A program made the translations under genes and the position numbers. The notes under the pieces are model-generated. The model ran no database searches. It was not told where the DNA came from and was given only the letters and a program-made list of their open reading frames with translations. A stretch of 64,000 nt of DNA from Sphingomonadales bacterium. GTDB lineage: Bacteria > Pseudomonadota > Alphaproteobacteria > Sphingomonadales > Sphingomonadaceae. The DNA is taken from contig JADKCA010000008.1 in NCBI GenBank assembly GCA_016714795.1, positions 66,083 to 130,082 of the forward strand, in the 5' to 3' direction. Below, piece by piece: positions 6,410 to 43,918 of the stretch (within the stretch, counting starts at the first letter, position 1; every line of letters begins with the position of its first letter).

Positions 6410-7843
6410 ATGCCTTCCGAAACGACCCTCAACGCCAAGAATCTCGCCGGATTGGGCGCTGATCGGCTCGCTGAGCTACTGCTCGAACTGGCGCAAGGCG
6501 ATGCTGCGGCGAAGCGCGCTCTGCGGATGGAACTGGCAAGCCGCAATGGTGGCGATGTCGGGGCGGAAATTCGCAAGCGGTTGGCCTCGATTGCCAAATC
6601 CAGATCCTTTGTCGACTGGCGCAGGATCAGAGAGCTGGCCAATGATCTCGACATGCAGCGCGCTGCAATCATGGCGCATGTGGCGCCCGAAAAACCCGGC
6701 GAAGCCTTTGATCTGCTCTGGCGGATGCTTGAGATGGCTCCAAAAATCTATGAGCGCTGCGACGACAGCAATGGCACAATCGGCACTGTCATCAGCACGG
6801 CACTGGATGATCTGGGTATTGTCGCTGGTCCGGCTAATCTCGAAAAGGGCAAGCTCGCCGAAAGGGTATTTGAGGGCGTTTGCGGCAACGATTACGGTCA
6901 GTTTGATGGGCTGATCGCGTTGATGGCGGGAGCACTGGGGCAACAAGGACTTGGCCTGCTTAAAGCCAAATTCGAAGAGCTTGCAGCGAGGCCCCCGATA
7001 AAGCCCAATAAGGATGAACGGCGCATCATCGCCTATGGCTCAGGCGGCCCTATATATGAGGACGACTTTGAAGCCACGCACCATGCCCGCCTCGTCAAAC
7101 ACGCACTCACTGACATTGCCGATGCGCTTGGTGATGTTGATGGCTATATCGCCCGCTTTTCGGATGAAGATCGCACCAACCCGGCTATCGCTGCCGGGAT
7201 CGCCGAACGGCTGCTTGGCGTCCAGCGGGCGGAAGAAGCCATGGCGGTGCTCACTGGAGCCGAAGCCACATCGCAGGCCGGCGGCCATTGGCCTGATTGG
7301 CTACGGGTCAAGATCGATGTGCTCGAAGCATTGGGGCGTATGGATGAAGCGCAGGCAGAGCGTTGGGCTGTTTTCGAGCGCACGCTCAGCTCGGAATATG
7401 TACGGTCCTATCTCAAGCGGCTGCCCGACTTTGACGACGTGGACGCGGAACGGAAAGCGCTGGCCCATGTTCAGCAATACGCCAATTTTCACCATGCGCT
7501 GTGGTTCCTTGTCGGCTGGCCATCGTACGAATTGGCAGCAGAACTGGTTCTGGCGCGCCACGCCGAGATCGACGGGAATAACTATGGGCTGTTGACCCCC
7601 GCCGCTGAGGCGCTGGAACAGAATTATCCATTGGCCGCCACATTGATGCTGCGCGCGATGATCGGCTATTCGCTCGATAAGGCCAAAGCCACGCGTTACG
7701 GCCATGCCGCGCGGCACATGCAAAGCTGCGAATATCTGGCCAAGCGGATTGAGAGTTTTGGCGATCACGCAGATCACGACGCCTTTGTAGCGGGCCTCAG
7801 GCTGCGGCATGGCCGCAAGAGCGGGTTTTGGAATGCAGGCTGA
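6410..7843 (+). CDS. hypothetical helical-repeat protein
   Basis: The track ORF is 6143-7843, but its first 89 codons are Arg/Trp/Cys-rich nonsense. ATG 6410 ('MPSETTLNAKNLAGLGADRLAELLLELAQGD...') starts the protein-like part. Long alpha-helical composition. Confidence 0.6.
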   Translation: MPSETTLNAKNLAGLGADRLAELLLELAQGDAAAKRALRMELASRNGGDVGAEIRKRLASIAKSRSFVDWRRIRELANDLDMQRAAIMAHVAPEKPGEAFDLLWRMLEMAPKIYERCDDSNGTIGTVISTALDDLGIVAGPANLEKGKLAERVFEGVCGNDYGQFDGLIALMAGALGQQGLGLLKAKFEELAARPPIKPNKDERRIIAYGSGGPIYEDDFEATHHARLVKHALTDIADALGDVDGYIARFSDEDRTNPAIAAGIAERLLGVQRAEEAMAVLTGAEATSQAGGHWPDWLRVKIDVLEALGRMDEAQAERWAVFERTLSSEYVRSYLKRLPDFDDVDAERKALAHVQQYANFHHALWFLVGWPSYELAAELVLARHAEIDGNNYGLLTPAAEALEQNYPLAATLMLRAMIGYSLDKAKATRYGHAARHMQSCEYLAKRIESFGDHADHDAFVAGLRLRHGRKSGFWNAG

Positions 7844-7882
7844 GTGTTACGGTGTTCCGGCTCCGGCCCGGCAACTTGACAC

Positions 7883-8257
7883 TCAATGCGGTGTTGGTCC
7901 CCGGTCTGCCGACCATGCGGCACCCAGTTCAAACCCGGCATCGGGCGACACCAAGGGGCCATCGGGCTCTTCGGCCACATAGGGCGAGACAAGGTCGCGC
8001 CGCGTGATCCGCTTGCGGTTCAAACGTGCCGCGACAAGCCCTCTGGCCTTGAGCAGGGCTGCTAGCCAGTCGAGCGTGTCCAGCATCTCAACGACGCCGC
8101 GTCCGGCAAGCGCATAATAGATCGCGCGCTGGAAATCGTCGCAGGCATTGCTCAATATTGCCGCCAGCTTGGCCCGCCCCTCAGGAACGCCATGGTGCAC
8201 CCAGTCGACCGCTTGGGCGAGTTCGCGCACCGAGAGATAGGCATCGTCGATCCCCAT
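7883..8257 (-). CDS. hypothetical protein (only minus-strand gene candidate in this block; N-terminus uncertain)
   Basis: 124-codon ORF. The same frame stays open and protein-like upstream to about 8390 ('...FYQFDLDIALRDAACDPDLRPQQRAVANLCLG') but has no ATG/GTG/TTG there, only a CTG. Confidence 0.35.
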   Translation of the reverse strand: MGIDDAYLSVRELAQAVDWVHHGVPEGRAKLAAILSNACDDFQRAIYYALAGRGVVEMLDTLDWLAALLKARGLVAARLNRKRITRRDLVSPYVAEEPDGPLVSPDAGFELGAAWSADRGPTPH

Positions 8258-8531
8258 GCCGAGGCACAGATTGGCGACCGCGCGCTGCTGCGGGCGCAGA
8301 TCGGGATCGCAGGCTGCGTCGCGCAGGGCGATGTCGAGATCGAATTGGTAAAAGGCCCGGTCAAGCCCAGAGTGGCCATTAGTCTGGAGATGACGTCCCG
8401 GCGCACGCAGTCGGGCCGAATTGCGAACATATCATGAACATACCCGTCAACTCCCCGTGACCGAGAGGCGAGGGGGAAGGGCAGGGGTGTCGGGACAATT
8501 GTCCTGCAGCTCTTGCAAGCAACCAAGGAGA

Positions 8532-8930
8532 ATGACGATGGCGACGACCATGCCTGCCGACGCTGCACCTGATGACGTGCAGCGCGCCTGCGAATGCGCG
8601 CGGCTCAACGATCTCTGCCGATCAGGCCAGCTGCGCGAAGCACGCACCGTGTTCACGCGCGGCTGCATCGATGCCTTTTGCGATCCCGAAGATCAGCTGA
8701 GCCTGTTCGCCGTCCAGGCCGCACTTGCCGCCAAGGTGCGTACCCATGAATTCAGCGGCGACGACGACCCGCATGGCGAGCGCGATTTCGGCGTGTTCGA
8801 GCATCAGCGGCAGAAACTCTTCTGGAAGATCGATTATTATGATCCGACGCTGAGTTTCGGATCGGAGGATCCGACTGATCTGTCCAAAACCCACCGCGTA
8901 CTCACCATCCTGCTTGCGAGCGAATATTGA
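8532..8930 (+). CDS. DUF3768-type protein
   Basis: 'DDDPHGERDFGVFEHQRQKLFWKIDYYDPTLSFGSEDPTDLSKTHRVLTILLASEY' matches the DUF3768 C-terminal signature as I remember it. AAGGAG at 8525-8530; start is ATG 8532 or 8538. Confidence 0.7.
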   Translation: MTMATTMPADAAPDDVQRACECARLNDLCRSGQLREARTVFTRGCIDAFCDPEDQLSLFAVQAALAAKVRTHEFSGDDDPHGERDFGVFEHQRQKLFWKIDYYDPTLSFGSEDPTDLSKTHRVLTILLASEY

Positions 8931-8952
8931 TGCCGGGTCGGGAGTTGAGGCC

Positions 8953-9306
8953 GTGAGCCGCCACAGCCTTGTGCCCTTGCCCGAGCATGGTGCGATCTAT
9001 GAAATTGCCATTGGTTGGGACCGTCCGTTGGGCAGTTTCTTCGTCATCATCTTTGGCACCCCTGACGACGATGATTCCGCCCCAGGCGGCGACGAGCTCA
9101 CGCCGCTGCTCTGGGAAGGAGCCGCACCCGGCGCGCTGATCACCCCTGAAGCCGCCATCGCGTTCGCGGCACCCTATGCCGTCATTCCCGACGGGCTGGC
9201 GGCGCTGCTTGCTGCCGATCGTCAAGCCGAAGGCGGCTCGGTGGACCGCCCCGCGCAACGCTCAGCGCTTGCGGCGCTTTGGCCCAAACCGAAAGGCAGA
9301 CCATGA
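8953..9306 (+). CDS. hypothetical protein
   Basis: ORF 8914-9306, with GTG 8953 preceded by GGAG. The stop overlaps the next start (ATGA at 9303-9306). Confidence 0.45.
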   Translation: MSRHSLVPLPEHGAIYEIAIGWDRPLGSFFVIIFGTPDDDDSAPGGDELTPLLWEGAAPGALITPEAAIAFAAPYAVIPDGLAALLAADRQAEGGSVDRPAQRSALAALWPKPKGRP

Positions 9307-36396: not shown

Positions 36397-37496
36397 ATGA
36401 AGTTCATCCACTCCGCTGACTGGCAACTCGGCAAACCTTACGGCCGCTTCGATCCCGATGTCCGAGGGGCGCTGACGGAGGCCCGCTTCGATGCAATCGA
36501 CGAACTTGGAAGACTTGCTGCGGAACACGGCGCGCAGCACGTCCTCGTAGCCGGCGATATCTTTGATACCGACGGTCCCGAAGATCGCACGATCGTGCAG
36601 GCGATTTCGCGCATGGATCGGCACGACTGCCGCTGGTGGCTCCTTCCGGGGAACCACGATTTCGCGCGCAACGGAGGCTTGTGGGACCGTGTTCGGCGGC
36701 GAGCCAGCGATAAAATCGTCATCCTCTCGGAACCCAAGCCCCACGAGATAGCGGATAGGATATGGCTGCGCCCGCACCGCTGATCCATAGACATAATCTG
36801 GAGGATCCAACAACCCTCTTCGATTCCATGGAAACCCCGGGCGCCCGGCTACGCATTGGCGTCGCACACGGATCGATCAGGGACTTTGGATCGCGCGGGG
36901 AGACCAAGAACCAGATCGACCCGGAACGCGCCAGGCTATCGAACCTCGACTATCTTGCGCTCGGCGACTGGCACGGTGCCCTCAAGGTTGATGCGCGAAC
37001 ATGGTATTCGGGTACACCGGAGACTGACCGCTTCCAGCGCGACGAGCCAGGCAGCGCACTCGTCGTCGATCTCCAGCCCGAGCATGCACCTACGGTGACG
37101 CCGATCCGAACGGGTCGCTTCCAATGGCTCACGCGCGATTGGACGGTCAACGACGAGGCAGCTTTCCACGCCGAATGCCACCAGCTACTTGCCGGTGTCG
37201 ACGCTCCAAACACGCTTCTGCAGCTAGCCCTTGCTGGCATTACCAGCCTCAGCGAACGGGTCGCGATGCTTGGGCGGCTCGAAGGCGATCTCGGTCATCG
37301 TCTGCGGTATCTGGCTGTGCGGGCGGATGATCTGGTCGGCCGGCCACGCGAGGAAGACCTCGCGACGATCGCCGTCGAAGGAATGCTCGGGACCGCTGCA
37401 GCCAAACTCAGCACTAAGATCGCTGAAGGCGGTCCGAATGGTGCCCTCGCCAAGCGAGCACTCGAGCGATTGTTCATCGAGTATAGCCGGGAGTGA
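36397..37496 (+). CDS. SbcD/Mre11-like metallophosphoesterase; frame break near 36767 as assembled
   Basis: 'MKFIHSADWQLG', 'AGDIFD', 'LPGNHD' and 'VAHGSI' are calcineurin-like phosphoesterase motifs. The track splits it into 36397-36783 and 36762-37496. The sense passes from '...EIADRIWL' to 'APAPLIHRHNLEDPTT'. Confidence 0.7.
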
Positions 37497-37502
37497 CCGT
37501 GC

Positions 37503-40136
37503 ATGAGCCTCGTCATCCGGCAAATCGCGGTCGACGGCTTCCGAAAATTTCGAACGCCCTTCGCGATTGAAAATCTATCGGACGGGTTGAACATCGTCAT
37601 CGAGCCGAATGAAACCGGCAAATCCACGTTGCTGGAGGCGCTTCGTGCAGCCTTTTTTGTCCGCCACAACACGCGCAACCAGCTCGCCCAGTCCTTCGCA
37701 CCATATGGCGAGGCAGTGGCCCCTGAGATCAAGGTGACCTTCGAAATCGACGGCTCTCCCTGGTCGCTGACAAAACGCTTCCTCAGAAATCCCTCGCTTG
37801 AGATCTCGAGTCCGCAGGGTCGGGCTCAAGGCGATGACGCGGAAGCACAGCTCAACGTACTGCTGGGCTCGGTCCGTGACACCAGTCGCGGCGGTGATGT
37901 TTCTTCATACGGAGCATTGGGGCTATTGTGGGTCGCGCAGACTGAGGCACTTGCCGTCTCGGGGCCTGGACAGATTGTTCGCGACTCGATCGCATCCACC
38001 CTCGAAGCCGAGGTTGGATCGATCATGGGGGGAGAGCCTTATCGGCGGGTGCGTCAACGGATAGACGCCCAGTATGAGCTTTATTGGTCGCCCAGCGGCC
38101 AGAAGCGCGGCCGGCAGAATGATGCGCGAGAAAGGTTAGCGGCTGCAGACGCGGCAGCACGCGAGGCCAACGAACGGCTCGCGGCACTGGAGCAGAGCTT
38201 TTCCGACCTCGACGCCGCACGTGGCCGGCTCAAGATCGTCCAGCGAGAGATCGCGGATGAGACCGATACGCAAGCTCGCAAAGACCTGGTCGACTCCCTT
38301 GAGATCGCCCGTGCGGCGGCGCAAATCCTCTCAACCCGGAAAGCAGAACAGGCGGCGGCCGCTGCGAAACTGAAAGGTCTGGAAGACCTGAAATCTCGCC
38401 ACTCGTCGGCGACTAGCTCCCGCGATAACGCCACGACTGCCGTGGAGATAGCTCGGGCAAAGCGTGCGGAGCTCAGCGAGGCGCTCTCGGCCGCCAAGAC
38501 CAAGATCGTGTCCGCGCGTGAGGATCTCGAGGCGGCGCGCAGTGAGCGAAAAGACGCCCGAAGAGCGCTTGAAGATGGTGAACAGGCTGTCCGCCTCAGC
38601 CGTCGCCAAGCCGGAACCGCGGCCGCTCGCCGTCGGCATGAAGAATTGCTGAAGCTCGAGCAGTTGCTTCGCGATACAAAGGCCCTGGCCGCAACCTCCA
38701 TACCGACCGAGACGGTCGAAATGCTTGAGGCGAATGACCGCGCGGTGAGCCAAGCTCAGGCCGTCCTCGACGCAGGCGCAACACGTCTGGCGCTGTCTGG
38801 CACCATCAACGGGGTCACAATCGACGGCGAGCCGATGCCAGCTGGCGAGCGCACCATCACGCGTGCCGCCCAAATCGTGATCGGAGAGGCCCAGTTGATC
38901 GTCAGCCCGCCGGCCGCGGCCGCGAGCGCCGAAGAGACCCTCGCCGTCGCAATCCGCAAACGGACGGCTGCGCTCGACGAGCTTCAGATAGCCGATCTTG
39001 CAGCCGCTCGTTCGCGCAACCAGACGGCGCGCGACGCCACCGGCGAACTGCGCACGCTTGCTGCGCGCATCGAGGCAGTCACACCCGCCGATGAGACACT
39101 TCAGATCGCGGCTGGCGCGGAGGCGCTAAAACTGTTTGTTGCGGGGCTCGAGCCGGAGGCAAATGAGGACGATAATGCGCTTCCCGATCTAACGGCCCTG
39201 GCAGAGGCGCTTGAGGCGGCAGATACGAAGCTCGCGCGCGCTGAAGGGACTCAAGACAGTGCCATAGCGGCACTCCGGCGTTCCGAGGAAGCTGATGCGC
39301 CGCTCGCGTTAGTCGAAGCCGGCGCGATGAGCGATCTCGCCAACGCGACGGCCCTTCTCCAAGAGATCGAGGCTCGCCCGGAATGGGCATCGCTTGATGT
39401 GGACCTCGACCAGGCGCGCGAAACGGCAGCCGAGGCGGCCGTCCGCCTGGAGGAGGCCGAGCGAAACGCATCGGCGCATGATGTCGCCGCGATCAATCGC
39501 AAGATCGAGGTAATCGACGCGCGCGTCCGGGTAGCCGCTGAAACGCGCACCAGACTGGAGACCGAGATTGCCCGACTTGAGGGCACCATTGAGAGCGAGG
39601 GCGGCCTTGGCTTAGCTGATCGCGCAGCGGCGGCTCAAGAGGAAGTGGAGGCGGCGAACGCAGCGTTTCAGCGCATTACCGAAGAGGCAGATACGCTCAA
39701 GCTGCTCCGCGACACTCTGGAAAGCGCACGAAACGAAACCGCAGCCAAGTTCGTTGGCCCCGTGGCGAAACGCGCAAAGCGATATATCTCACAGCTACTG
39801 CCAGAATGCGACCTCTCCTTCGCCGAAGATCTGACGCTTGCGAGGGTTAGCCGGACTGGCGTGGACGAAAGCTGCGCCAACCTCTCTCGTGGCACCCAGG
39901 AGCAGCTCGCCATTCTGACTAGGATCGCGTTCGCGGACCTGCTTCTTGAGCAGGGGAAACCCGTTTCGCTGATCCTCGACGACCCGCTAGTCTATTCCGA
40001 CGATGGCCGTCTCGACACCATGATCGAAATTCTCACCGAAGCCGCAACACGTATGCAGATCATATTGTTGACTTGCCGAGACCGAGCGTTCCGGCACGTC
40101 CCGGGCAACAGGATCCGGGTTGGCACTGGGACCTAG
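37503..40136 (+). CDS. SbcC/Rad50-like (YhaN-type) coiled-coil ABC ATPase
   Basis: Walker A 'EPNETGKST', a very long Ala/Glu/Arg-rich coiled coil, signature-like 'LSRGTQEQL', and Walker B 'SLILDDPLVYSD'. Confidence 0.8.
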   Translation: MSLVIRQIAVDGFRKFRTPFAIENLSDGLNIVIEPNETGKSTLLEALRAAFFVRHNTRNQLAQSFAPYGEAVAPEIKVTFEIDGSPWSLTKRFLRNPSLEISSPQGRAQGDDAEAQLNVLLGSVRDTSRGGDVSSYGALGLLWVAQTEALAVSGPGQIVRDSIASTLEAEVGSIMGGEPYRRVRQRIDAQYELYWSPSGQKRGRQNDARERLAAADAAAREANERLAALEQSFSDLDAARGRLKIVQREIADETDTQARKDLVDSLEIARAAAQILSTRKAEQAAAAAKLKGLEDLKSRHSSATSSRDNATTAVEIARAKRAELSEALSAAKTKIVSAREDLEAARSERKDARRALEDGEQAVRLSRRQAGTAAARRRHEELLKLEQLLRDTKALAATSIPTETVEMLEANDRAVSQAQAVLDAGATRLALSGTINGVTIDGEPMPAGERTITRAAQIVIGEAQLIVSPPAAAASAEETLAVAIRKRTAALDELQIADLAAARSRNQTARDATGELRTLAARIEAVTPADETLQIAAGAEALKLFVAGLEPEANEDDNALPDLTALAEALEAADTKLARAEGTQDSAIAALRRSEEADAPLALVEAGAMSDLANATALLQEIEARPEWASLDVDLDQARETAAEAAVRLEEAERNASAHDVAAINRKIEVIDARVRVAAETRTRLETEIARLEGTIESEGGLGLADRAAAAQEEVEAANAAFQRITEEADTLKLLRDTLESARNETAAKFVGPVAKRAKRYISQLLPECDLSFAEDLTLARVSRTGVDESCANLSRGTQEQLAILTRIAFADLLLEQGKPVSLILDDPLVYSDDGRLDTMIEILTEAATRMQIILLTCRDRAFRHVPGNRIRVGTGT

Positions 40137-40365
40137 TCGACGCGGGCGTGGCGGGCTGAGGATTGGATTAATATTCTCCCGCAGGATATTATCAAACGTC
40201 ATAGCTTCGACCTATCCGCTCAGAGATTACACAGATGATGGTTGCCAGCAAAGGTTGTTCGTGCTGATGTTAGGCCACGACCTAGGGCTGATGAGAGTAC
40301 TATGTCAGTTATTTGGTGGTCTCGAGATAATATTGCGGGCGGATTGGTATTAGGGGGGGAATCAC

Positions 40366-42671
40366 TTGATCAGCAAGATCGAGATCGCGGACGTGGCGAC
40401 TTATCCGGCCGCCGGCGAGCGGTTGACGGACCTGAAGAAGGTTAACTACCTGTTCGGCCACAATGGCTGCGGCAAGACGACGATTTCGCGCGCGATCCAC
40501 GACCCATCCATCTGCACGGGATATACCGTCAATTGGCGGGATGGACGCGAGCTTGCGACGCTGGTCTTTAATCGAGATTTCGCCGATGCTAGCTTCGGGG
40601 ATCAAATGCAGGGCATCTTTACGCTCGGCGAGGACTCTACCGAGCAGTGGCGGAGATCGAGCGCCTTACGGCCGAGATTGCTGGACCAGATAGCGACATA
40701 GTCAACCTGCGCCGGAATCTTGTTGGAGAAGACAGCACCGGCGGGCGCGAGGCTGAACTCGTGGCGGCGCGCGTGGCGCTGATCGAGGCATGCTGGAAGT
40801 CGCAGGTCGACCACAAGGACGCGTTCATAGGCGCATTCACCGGCTTCCGTGGCAAGAAGGAGGACTTCTGCACGAAGCTGCTGGCCGAGGCAGAGGGTAA
40901 CACTTCGGAGTTGAAGACGTTGGACGCGCTGACGGCGGAGGCGACGACCGTCTTCCAAGATGCCACGACGCCGGAGATCGCGATCGCACCTATTTCCTTC
41001 GACCGATTCGCGAGTCTGGAAGCTTCCTCGATCCTTGCCCGCAGCATCGTGGGCCGCGACGACGTAGTTGTGGCCGCGCTCATCGGCCGTCTTGGCAACA
41101 GCGATTGGGTTAAGCAGGGCGTTGGATATCTGACCGCGGCGGACGGCCCGTGCCCTTTTTGCCAGCAACCAGCGCCTGCCGGATTGCTCGACGATCTCAA
41201 CGCGTTCTTCGACGAGCAATATGAGGCTGATCTCGCCTCGATCGACCTTCTGGCGGCGTCGTATCAGCAGGCGGCCAATGCCGTCGTTGAACGCATTGAC
41301 GCCCTCGTAGCAGCGCCACATCGGCTTTTGGACATGGCAGCCCTAGGCGAGCGCTCCACGGCTTTGAAGACCGCTTTCGAACTCAATATCGAACGCATCA
41401 CGGCGAAACGGAAAGAGCCAAGTGGTGTGGTTGAGCTCGACACTACGGCCGAGCTGACGACTGCTATCACCGCCCTGATCGCGGCAACGAACGCGGCGAC
41501 CGAGCAGTATAACGCCACCATCCGCAATCTCGCGAGCGCGAAGTCGGCTCTGACCGCGCATATATGGAGGTTCGTCGTCGAGGAACGACGCACGGATATC
41601 GACACCTACGAGACCACGGCCGGAACCCTTCAGCGCGCGATCGACGGAATGCGTCGCAGCATCGACGACAAGACCACGCGGCGAGCGGACCTTATACGCC
41701 AGCGTTCCGCGATTGAGGAGACGATCACCAGCGTCCGCCCGACGGTAGATTCCATCAATCGAATCCTAGGCCAGTATGGCTTCACCAATTTTCGCCTCGA
41801 AGTGGCTGGTGAGCGCAGCAACATGTATCGCATCGTGCGACTGGACGGGAGCGAGGCGGCGCACTCCTTGAGCGAGGGTGAGCGTTCTTTCATCACCTTC
41901 CTCTACTTCTATCACCAGCTAGCTGGCAGCACCTCGAGTACAGGAACCGCAGTCGAGAAAGTTGTGGTATTCGACGATCCAGTCTCGAGCCTCGACGCCG
42001 ACGTCCTGTTCGTGGTCAGCGCGCTGATCCGGAAGGTCGTATCCGACGTGCGGGAGAATGTAGGCAACGTCCGCCAGGTGTTCGTGCTCACGCACAACAT
42101 CTACTTTCACAAGGAGGTCAGTTTCGACCGAGATCGCCGCAGCAACGCGCGGTCGTTCGAGTCCTTCTGGATCGTTCGGAAACGCGAAAACGTGTCCTCG
42201 CTCACCCGCTACGATTACAACCCGGTCAAGACCTCATACGAGCTGCTGTGGGATGACGTGCGCAGTTCGGATCGACCGAACCTCACGATCCAAAACACGA
42301 TGCGCCGAATCGTCGAGAACTATCTGACCGTCCTGGGTGGGCTGAAGCAGGACGAGATCGTCGCACGTTTTGAAGGTCGCGACGCCCAGATCTGCGCCTC
42401 GCTGTTCTCGTGGATCAACGACGGATCACACAGCTCGCACGACGATATCTACGTAGCCGTCGATGACAATGCGGTGCAAGGCTACCTACGCGTGTTCAGA
42501 GAAGTGTTCGAGCGCACGGGACACGGCGCTCACTACCGAATGATGATGCGCATAAGCGATGACGACCCGGAAGATGGTGCGGTTGCTGCGGCACCTGTGG
42601 ACGCAGTTGCGATTCCTCCCGGTGCATCTGCTCCGCCCGCCTACGCTCCCGGGCAGCCAGCGGCTGAATAG
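40366..42671 (+). CDS. RloC/PrrC-like ABC ATPase (AAA_13-type) with CxxC hook and C-terminal anticodon-nuclease-like region; frame break near 40647 as assembled
   Basis: TTG 40366 follows GGGGGGG. Walker A 'GHNGCGKTT', 'GPCPFCQQ' within the coiled coil, 'LSEGERSF', and Walker B 'VVVFDDPVSSLD'. The C-terminal part has 'MRRIVENY...INDGSHSSH' (R-x3-E...H spacing like PrrC). The track splits it into 40366-40701 and 40647-42671. Confidence 0.7.
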
Positions 42672-42674
42672 GCT

Positions 42675-43517
42675 GTGGTCGGTCCGGTCTCGATCGACAG
42701 GGCGTGGTGGGAGCATCTGACTCCAACCTCGATGCACAAGCTGCGCGGGGAGGTCGAACGGCGGCTACGCGCTTGGTGCGAATTGGACTACGGTAAATTC
42801 TGGCTCAGCAGCGCGCGGACGCCTGGTGGCGTGATCCGGATTAATGCTGGCGACGCCATCCCGGATTTCCACGTGGTCGTGATGCGCAACGGCTTGAAGT
42901 TCGTCGCGCCGCAGAAGCGCATGCGCGCGGGGCACCGGAGCGTGTCGATCGGTACGGACGAATATAGGTCCGGTAAGGCCCAACAAACCGGCGAGCTCAT
43001 CCTATCGCCCGTGATCCGTCTCGACCTCGTGACCGACCCGGCGCTCATGGCCGCGGCGCGCAGGTTCGACATCAACATGCCGTCTGCGCAAGTGACCGAA
43101 CCGAGCATCCTGTTCTCAGCACCTGCGCACATCCTAATCGCGCCGAATGGCTGGCCAAAAAGGTCGTTCGTCCTCTACCAGCATATCTTCGGCGAGGGCG
43201 GCTCCTATCCCGTCGATGGTTACTTCTACGTCGGCATCACGACGCGGAGCTGGAAGACTCGCTGGACCGAGCATCGTCGCGCGATGCGAAAGGGCAGCAA
43301 CCTGCTGTTCCACCGCAAGCTACGTGAGGAATTGGAGTCCAAGCGAGTGACCTACATCCACCACAAGGTTATGGCCGTCACGACCGACGTCGAGGCGCTT
43401 TACGAAGCGGAGGAAGCACTGGTGCGCGGTCATTGGGGGGACAGCAGGCGGCTCAACATGATCCCGGGCGGTCGAAGCGGCTATCGCCACCTTCCGAATG
43501 CTGGCTTGGGCGACTAA
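42675..43517 (+). CDS. GIY-YIG nuclease-domain protein with unknown N-terminal domain
   Basis: It starts 3 nt after the RloC-like stop. 'FVLYQHIF...GYFYVGITTRSWKTRWTEHRR...ALYEAEEALV...LNMIPGG' follows the GIY-YIG pattern. Confidence 0.6.
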   Translation: MVGPVSIDRAWWEHLTPTSMHKLRGEVERRLRAWCELDYGKFWLSSARTPGGVIRINAGDAIPDFHVVVMRNGLKFVAPQKRMRAGHRSVSIGTDEYRSGKAQQTGELILSPVIRLDLVTDPALMAAARRFDINMPSAQVTEPSILFSAPAHILIAPNGWPKRSFVLYQHIFGEGGSYPVDGYFYVGITTRSWKTRWTEHRRAMRKGSNLLFHRKLREELESKRVTYIHHKVMAVTTDVEALYEAEEALVRGHWGDSRRLNMIPGGRSGYRHLPNAGLGD

Positions 43518-43724
43518 AGTTCAGAAGGTTTGCTCGAAGATCGCGATCGGGCGGTGTCTAGTTGGCTGGGCAGAAATCCTGACCGTCCTCTCCCACCAAT
43601 TTCGCCTTGGGTGACGCGATCGGCACTTTTGTCAGGCCCGGACGTTGCCGCGAATGATCTAAACGACTGGCGCTGGTTGGACCCGGAAGCTGGCTTCGAT
43701 GCGTTCGAATGTCCGCTATCTTAG

Positions 43725-43918
43725 TTCCACGAGGGTGAAGCTGACTAACCGGACCGTCCGCAAAAGGCGACGATAACGGAACCGCTGAAAGGTCCGCAAA
43801 TCCTGACGTTGGGCGATCTGTTCAAGACTAACGTTGGACTTCGGCTTGCAACGCCACCTGTAAATTGCTACACAATTGCGGCGTAAGGACCACCGGCTCC
43901 ATTTAAGGAGCTAGAACG
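43725..43918 (+). other. candidate oriT / relaxosome-binding region
   Basis: Intergenic region directly upstream of the RHH-T4CP-relaxase operon. Direct repeats GTCCGCAAA (43756, 43792) and ACGTTGG (43806, 43831), plus AATTGC x2. The nic site is not identified. Confidence 0.3.

Follow-up and report, generated by a model that had tools for sequence, protein, structure and literature searches.

A frame-broken RloC-type tRNase gene and a truncated GIY-YIG nuclease gene in an alphaproteobacterial defence island: probable neighbours rather than a two-part system

Does a gene for an RloC-type anticodon nuclease, followed within three nucleotides by a gene for a GIY-YIG protein, form a two-part defence system, or are the two genes merely neighbours? 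The question is raised by positions 40366–43517 of a 64,000-nucleotide stretch from a Sphingomonadales bacterium (assembly GCA_016714795.1, contig JADKCA010000008.1, positions 66,083–130,082), referred to here as the window, in which a first-pass annotation had described the two genes as a unit. We answer, with moderate confidence, in favour of neighbours: the locus probably holds an RloC gene of known type, dead in this genome, beside an independent nuclease of an uncharacterised family, and not a new two-part system. The two genes would be autonomous, having been juxtaposed once and then inherited as one block on alphaproteobacterial mobile elements. An obligate RloC–GIY two-component system is unlikely, because each gene persists intact after the other has been lost and because the parent GIY family transfers itself. 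Since that family spreads alone and beside many systems, the GIY protein is probably not a dedicated partner, antitoxin, or regulator of RloC. The features of the locus, all on the forward strand, are listed below.

40043–40365 (+): non-coding leader upstream of the cassette, where the block common to the orthologous loci starts
40366–40701 (+): 5′ fragment of rloC with a TTG start and the Walker A motif GHNGCGKTT; an open reading frame (ORF) of 111 amino acids (aa), whose stop is reached after the frameshift
40636–40648 (+): interval of the single-base deletion that breaks the frame, located in a MAFFT DNA alignment with the orthologous loci L001, L005, and L008
40647–42671 (+): remainder of rloC in another frame; a 674-aa ORF running from the helical insert to the C-terminal HEPN-type region
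42675–43136 (+): N-terminal domain of the GIY family, approximately 150 aa and family-specific (residues 1–150 modelled at a predicted local distance difference test score, pLDDT, of 81–97)
43137–43517 (+): GIY-YIG nuclease core (VLY168, Y185-V-G187, R196, H200, E246, N261), closed by the TAA at 43515–43517
43518–43724 (+): linker remnant in the same frame (LEDRDRAVSSWLGRNPDRPLPP...), with a 64-aa ORF at 43530–43724 beyond the TAA

The 111-aa and 674-aa ORFs are parts of one gene. Together they cover the Pfam AAA_13 profile, the first matching positions 2–94 (E = 5e-19) and the second positions 128–713 of 713 (E = 6e-139), which bears out the initial description of a protein of approximately 770 aa with a frame break. 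Both also matched the PADLOC model of the candidate single-gene system PDC-S06 (E = 1e-33 for the 5′ fragment, positions 1–98; E = 3e-225 for the remainder), whereas the PADLOC PrrC model gave a weak partial match to the RloC-type protein (E = 2e-7). RloC has been defined by PrrC-like ABC motifs combined with a Rad50-like coiled-coil insert that carries a CX2C zinc hook, and by the nuclease motif "Arg-X3-Glu-X36-52-His (where Ser often precedes His)" (Davidov & Kaufmann 2008, PMC2610378); the nuclease of PrrC and RloC has been classed as a HEPN domain (Anantharaman et al., PMC3710099). Conservation of these elements was read from an alignment of 23 RloC homologues, with identities down to 40%, in the residue numbering of a 768-aa orthologue. 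All four ATPase elements (Walker A, the LSEGE signature, Walker B with the D-loop, and the histidine of the switch) were invariant or nearly so. CPFCQ, at residues 263–267 of 768, was invariant in 23/23 homologues and lies midway in the stretch of approximately 460 residues between Walker A (31–39) and the signature (502–506); weak matches to Rad50, SMC, and filament profiles flank it, consistent with a predicted helical insert. In the C-terminal region, QNTxRRIxExY and SWxxDGSHxxHD were invariant, as was the triad R647-x3-E651-x37-S688-H689 that fits the published nuclease motif. In the window, the 674-aa ORF carries the CPFCQ hook, the LSEGERSF signature, the Walker B motif VVVFDDPVSSLD, the LTHN switch, and MRRIVENY ... 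DGSHSSH. Given this agreement with the published definition, in profile and motifs as well as in the CxxC of the zinc hook and the R-x3-E-x37-(S)H triad, we assign the gene to RloC as an orthodox member of that family; the zinc hook and the nuclease triad that had been proposed from the window alone were both upheld.

The protein resembles the RloCs of Geobacillus kaustophilus and Acinetobacter baylyi (COG4694, AAA_13; PMC2610378) in its length of approximately 770 aa, its ABC motifs, its central CxxC hook, and its R-x3-E-x37-S-H triad. It also shares with them the rare start codon, which in the window's subclade is TTG (rare start codons were noted for RloC in PMC2610378), and a mostly absent linkage to restriction–modification (R-M) genes. 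The window copy differs by its frameshift, and its subclade by the GIY-YIG gene directly downstream, an arrangement undescribed for RloC. PrrC, the anticodon nuclease of the Escherichia coli EcoprrI type Ic R-M locus, is similar in combining an ABC ATPase with a HEPN-type R/E/H nuclease, but it has approximately 400 aa, lacks the coiled-coil and zinc-hook insert, and always lies inside a type Ic hsd locus, whereas the window protein has 768 aa and the insert. A PrrC identity was ruled out on length (double that of PrrC), on the insert, and on the absence of flanking hsd genes, and of the two names under which the gene was first described, RloC is the one to be kept. Among RloC homologues of approximately 42–45% identity (metagenomic loci L066–L137), hsdS stood directly upstream in 18 of 85 RloC-homologue loci and HsdR directly downstream in several, which is the expectation for "restriction-linked ORFs" and speaks for the RloC identity; this classical context was not seen in the RloC subclade of the window, where no hsd genes flank rloC. 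A three-gene order of a small GIY-YIG nuclease, a protein of ~65 aa, and an RloC-like ATPase occurred at none of the 85 loci. Homologues are named "wobble nucleotide-excising tRNase" in JGI and UniRef. A PDB sequence search with the RloC orthologue returned no match, and NCBIfam held nothing useful for either the RloC-type or the GIY protein. The RloC subfamily had no match at E ≤ 1e-30 in 400 genomes of the same class, and is therefore rare. By homology, RloC would join a Rad50-like ABC ATPase, interrupted by the helical insert that carries the CxxC zinc hook, to a HEPN-type anticodon nuclease at the C-terminus. Its ATPase head would be activated by DNA damage or by DNA ends, and the nuclease would then remove the wobble nucleotide of tRNA, so that translation stops and the phage infection is aborted.

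In the window, the deletion of one base parts the Walker A segment from the rest of RloC. The missing base was located against three intact orthologues; those in Sphingobium, Allorhizobium, and Rhizobium are uninterrupted at 767–768 aa and share 84–91% protein identity with the window over both pieces. The window copy thus has no intact reading frame, and its Walker A is stranded on a separate 5′ fragment. Programmed frameshifting was considered and rejected, as the orthologues are uninterrupted and no slippery heptamer is present; this absence indicates a mutation rather than recoding. That the break is an error of sequencing or assembly, with RloC intact and active in the organism, seems unlikely. 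The base does fall in a short homopolymer, CC or GG according to how the gap is placed, and indel errors typically arise at such sites; an SbcD-like gene of the same island is likewise frame-broken, which could mean that the local assembly is poor. Against this, the assembly keeps ORFs of 5989 aa (18 kb), 3504 aa, and 2549 aa, an adjacent pair of approximately 1390 aa, and many of more than 1000 aa, so that a high genome-wide rate of indel errors is improbable. Within the window itself, a 988-aa relaxase ORF and an 877-aa ATPase ORF are uninterrupted, and lesions clustered in accessory defence genes are the expected product of relaxed selection. Judged from its reading frame, the rloC of the window is most likely inactive.

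The SbcD-like gene mentioned above encodes a phosphoesterase at 36397–37496 and is split into two frames near 36770 (ORFs 36397–36783 and 36762–37496). It sits upstream of the 877-aa SbcC-like ATPase gene and represents another probable frameshift. The whole island looks as if it is decaying.

The second gene encodes a truncated member of an uncharacterised family of GIY-YIG endonucleases. Its ORF (42675–43517, 280 aa) starts with GTG, and the junction reads TAG (the rloC stop, 42669–42671), GCT, and then the GTG at 42675, exactly the spacing of 3 nucleotides (nt) first reported. At E ≤ 1e-3, 301 relatives were found, none with a recorded Pfam domain, and the few that are named are called "hypothetical protein" or "GIY-YIG domain-containing protein". 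Most relatives have 370–380 aa (typically 372 aa), whereas those nearest to the window protein (77–90% identity) have 250–316 aa and lack the last 60–100 residues. In the 372-aa layout, the family-specific N-domain is followed by the GIY-YIG core and by an I-TevI-like C-terminal helical domain (helices at 306–363). This helical domain, which is predicted to bind DNA, is missing in the window copy and in the whole clade of 271–316 aa. An in-frame TAA ends the window copy at a point past which its nearest relatives continue, reaching 309 aa; beyond approximately 43610 the similarity to the family is gone, and blastn similarity to the loci L004, L006, and L063 stops at 43602–43677. The initial description of a 280-aa protein whose C-terminal half is a GIY-YIG domain therefore stood as regards the domain, which profile and fold searches recovered, but not as regards completeness, since full-length relatives have 372 aa. 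The catalytic core of the window copy is complete: in window numbering, Y168, Y185-V-G187, R196-x3-H200, E246, and N261 do not vary within the family. Their spacings (R-x3-H, 50 residues from R to E, and 15 from E to N) mirror those of I-TevI. In this genome, the GIY gene may still be active.

Sequence profiles reached this family unevenly. Pfam GIY-YIG (PF01541) remained below threshold, at 14.2–16.0 bits against a cut-off of 22.6 (E = 0.016–0.057), whereas PHROG_314, annotated as "homing endonuclease", matched the GIY protein with E = 1.9e-7. No PADLOC model, including that of PD-T4-3, matched it, and PDB sequence searches with the profile of the whole GIY family and with that of the GIY core were empty. 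An AlphaFold model of a 372-aa member reached a pLDDT of 87 and a predicted template-modelling score (pTM) of 0.77. Its best matches in a Foldseek search of BFVD were phage GIY-YIG homing endonucleases (E = 1.7e-7), aligned over both the core and the C-terminal helical domain; of the 29 BFVD matches at E ≤ 1e-3, the named ones were mostly GIY-YIG, intron, or homing endonucleases. The same whole-chain model gave no significant Foldseek match in the PDB. When the core of the window protein was modelled alone (pLDDT 83), the top PDB match was the catalytic domain of I-TevI, with a template-modelling (TM) score of 0.65 (target-normalised), a root-mean-square deviation of 3.4 Å, and an E value of only 0.25, followed by PD-T4-3 (9u75; E = 0.83, TM 0.43, query-normalised). 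The N-domain had no fold match in the PDB and was found in no other architecture: a hidden Markov model search of 1.84 billion representative proteins returned 58 matches, all of them members or fragments of this family.

The family is thus close to I-TevI and the free-standing, Seg-type GIY-YIG homing endonucleases of phages, which provide its best fold matches and with which it shares the core (Y...Y-V-G, R-x3-H, E, N), solo transfer, and, in full-length relatives but not in the window copy, the linker and C-terminal helical DNA-binding domain. It differs from them by the additional N-terminal domain of 150 aa, which is unique to the family, and by its habitat, as it lives on proteobacterial plasmids, conjugative elements, and defence islands and not typically in phages. 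PD-T4-3 (PDB 9u75) is a single-gene GIY-YIG anti-phage nuclease and the second-best PDB fold match of the core; the match is weak, and its accessory domains differ from those of the GIY family. A literature search found no paper on this GIY-YIG family or on an RloC–GIY tandem.

The surroundings of the GIY gene were surveyed at 47 genome loci, with the upstream neighbours sampled. RloC stood upstream at 5 of the 47 loci, all five at least 82% identical to the window protein. The other upstream neighbours in the sample included complete Lamassu (LmuA/C/B), Gabija (GajA/B), Mokosh (MkoB), OLD, PDC-M68, and PDC-M30, as well as an Mrr-type nuclease, a UvrD/PD-(D/E)XK helicase-nuclease, and genes without known function. 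Downstream, ZorD-like, HerA/DUF4297, DpdE, and PDC-M54 genes were found, together with mobile-element and housekeeping genes. A recognised defence gene lay immediately upstream at roughly 40% of the distinct loci by our own tally. A rule that a defence gene always stands upstream of the family was rejected, as PADLOC matched one of ten upstream neighbours in a second, unselected set. Given this mixture of neighbours, the GIY family is enriched in defence islands yet tied to no one system.

The unit of transfer is the GIY gene alone, and it moves across different genera. At four loci in Paracidovorax, Acidovorax, Massilia, and Stutzerimonas (L037–L040; positions 7813–9161 in each), DNA identity of 90–96% is confined to the GIY gene and its edges, from 188 bp before the start codon to 25–40 bp after the stop, and beyond these limits the loci have nothing in common. 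Two further locus pairs showed the same pattern of a solitary block, with at most approximately 320 bp of flank. One attempt to find an empty site or target of the solitary block produced weak matches only. Family members occur on 16 of 72,556 plasmid records, whereas 50,697 phage records gave one weak partial match. On an Agrobacterium plasmid, the GIY gene lies between a CBASS operon, a Gp37/TcmP pair, and a Tn7-like transposon. A megablast search of the window locus against the PLSDB plasmids found no match. The full-length family spreads as a single gene and settles in defence islands beside many unrelated systems. Its product would most likely cut DNA independently, whether for defence, like a restriction enzyme that needs no partner, or for its own spread, as a selfish gene of the homing type.

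Two further features of these mobile copies were recorded. The block of L037–L040 opens with an element of approximately 70 nt (TAGAGCGTGTTCTGAACTTTGAGCGCCGCAATAG...). In L038 and L040 it recurs approximately 80 nt past the stop codon, and behind this second copy lies a degenerate ORF similar to the N-terminal part of an IS4/5-type transposase. The element is present in one or two copies per genome and had no match in Rfam, which likewise returned nothing at the window locus or at the locus of a full-length relative. Five of the plasmid matches (H9 and H13–H16, from Mesorhizobium, Rhizobium, and Martelella) are isolated 3′ fragments of the GIY gene, covering residues ~276–372 or 307–372 at 77–88% identity, and the H9 fragment adjoins insertion sequence transposases. 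Such fragments indicate that the gene is often cut by rearrangements.

Viewed from the RloC side, the tandem proved to be narrowly distributed. The metagenome scan alone returned more than 550 RloC homologues. Members of the GIY family were found at 0 of 74 metagenomic RloC loci at ≤46% identity, 54 of which have at least 900 bp of downstream sequence, and the genes directly downstream of these distant RloCs were heterogeneous (HsdR, nSTAND, ResIII, DarT, HD-CE). In the RloC tree, the clade of at least 65% identity begins with the GIY-less lineages L054 and L060 at its base, followed by a clade of nine lineages (support 93/92) whose ancestor had the tandem. The state of the two genes in this clade was as follows.

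Both genes intact: the L001 group, L005, L056, and L061
GIY intact, RloC frameshifted: the window
GIY frameshifted, RloC intact: L008 and L051
GIY reduced to a 43-codon remnant, RloC intact: L059
GIY absent, RloC intact: L062

In L063, GIY is intact and RloC is cut by the contig edge. In L004 (Sphingomonas solaris, 7811–8000), GIY is intact and RloC has been replaced by the Mokosh gene MkoB upstream, while only the 3′ end of rloC (~200 nt) has been kept, along with the stop codon and the 3-nt spacer; here the replacement of an upstream defence cargo was caught in the act. RloC is therefore intact after the loss or decay of GIY in four of the nine lineages, and GIY is intact after the loss of RloC in two (the window and L004). 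Mutual co-conservation, as would befit an obligate two-gene system, was not found, and the co-occurrence survey suggested in the first-pass annotation showed the pair to be largely not co-conserved. The claim of a two-gene unit therefore holds in part: the pair is kept and co-diverges in one alphaproteobacterial RloC subclade, but it is absent from all 74 distant RloC loci and present at only 5 of 47 GIY loci.

Within that subclade, the two genes share one history. The shared block begins at 40043–40342 of the window when compared with L001, L005, L008, L051, and L058 and ends at 43474–43525 (3.3–3.5 kb), and blastn showed the flanks to be unrelated. Because of where the block ends, its right edge falls at the truncation point of GIY. 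The pairwise synonymous divergences (dS) of the two genes track each other (0.47 vs. 0.40, 1.64 vs. 1.57, and 0.24 vs. 0.40). From the RloC tree, the matched dS, and the shared block edges, the tandem appears to have arisen once, in the alphaproteobacterial RloC subclade of at least 65% identity, and to have been inherited as a block. Where intact, both genes are predicted to be functional. The leader contains a promoter-like site at 40302–40331, which is a consensus match only. Beyond the GIY remnant, 43725–43918 is non-coding and separates it from genes for a ribbon–helix–helix (RHH) protein, a coupling protein, and a relaxase; the cassette block ends there.

At two of the distant RloC loci, of approximately 42% identity (L084, 6220–7446; L101, 6235–7458), a gene for an SbcD-like metallophosphoesterase (Metallophos and SbcD_C) overlaps the RloC stop by 4 nt. 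For an RloC-type ATPase, this arrangement looks like a Rad50/Mre11-style pairing.

Several observations weigh against regarding the two genes as mere neighbours, and they favour a real two-component defence system, a reading that we hold to be rather unlikely. In such a system, the nuclease would dock on the Rad50-like head of RloC, as Mre11/SbcD does on Rad50/SbcC, having lost its own DNA-binding domain; it would make or process the DNA ends sensed by RloC or serve as an additional effector directed at DNA. The two genes adjoin tightly, and the 3-nt gap or 4-nt overlap between them has been kept across saturated synonymous divergence (dS > 1.5) while the genes co-diverged. Purifying selection acts on both genes: the truncated GIY shows dN/dS ratios of 0.1–0.2 over a long divergence (0.09–0.19), like those of RloC (0.08–0.20). 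The DNA-binding domain is missing solely in the RloC-linked GIY clade, so that every family member without this helix–turn–helix (HTH) region traces to an RloC-linked ancestor. The overlapping SbcD-like nuclease genes behind two distant RloC homologues suggest that RloC-type ATPases may recruit nuclease partners. Moreover, defence genes turn over fast, and independent losses are no proof of functional independence. Against a two-component system stand the intact RloCs, not only in the four lineages that lost or are losing GIY but also in sister lineages that never had it, the GIY gene that stays intact and constrained beside Mokosh after RloC was replaced, and the parent GIY family, a free agent beside many other systems. 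A looser, facultative cooperation, with the GIY nuclease as an Mre11-like accessory of the Rad50-like RloC, is kept alive by the tight junction, by the SbcD-like genes, and by the sustained constraint on a nuclease devoid of its DNA-binding domain, but we consider it improbable as well.

Two other roles for the GIY protein deserve weighing. The first-pass annotation had raised the possibility of a regulator of the kind that PrrC has in EcoprrI, that is, an immunity or silencing partner that keeps the tRNase off until the silencer is inactivated. The GIY gene lies directly downstream and is probably co-transcribed, and PrrC sets a precedent for silencing by a DNA-acting enzyme. This proposal nevertheless fares worst, and we regard it as very improbable: full-length RloC is kept in L008 and L051, where GIY is frameshifted, in L059, where a remnant is left, and in L062, where it is absent, and in published work RloC regulates itself through its own ATPase and zinc hook. 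As an essential silencer of RloC, GIY was rejected on this loss pattern, because a toxin that remains intact when its candidate silencer is lost rules out such a role. A different proposal is that the 372-aa family consists of free-standing, homing-type endonucleases that colonise defence islands, cut near their own gene, and so drive the swap of the neighbouring cassette. In its favour, the GIY gene is the sole conserved piece between unrelated islands (1.3-kb blocks of 90–96% identity in different genera), it stands just downstream of, and is usually co-oriented with, Lamassu, Gabija, Mokosh, OLD, or RloC, and one swap from RloC to Mokosh has left a 200-nt RloC tail. We nevertheless give this specific mechanism little credence. 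On that proposal, the RloC-linked clade would be a domesticated, HTH-less derivative, a corollary that is equally doubtful. The preferred reading remains that of a dead RloC beside an autonomous nuclease.

The RloC family and the GIY-YIG superfamily were known; what appears to be undescribed is the GIY family itself and its tandem with RloC. RloC is an established abortive-infection tRNase, and the copy in the window adds little to it because it is broken. However improbable a partnership may be, an RloC lineage that has long carried a catalytically complete GIY-YIG nuclease without a DNA-binding domain is a test case for nuclease partners of RloC. The negative result on the pair also cautions against calling every tight gene pair in a defence island a system. 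The parent GIY-YIG family is annotated as "hypothetical" everywhere, although its N-domain is unique, it travels as a single gene, and it is over-represented next to known defence systems; these three properties make it a candidate for either a new single-gene defence nuclease or a selfish reshuffler of defence islands.

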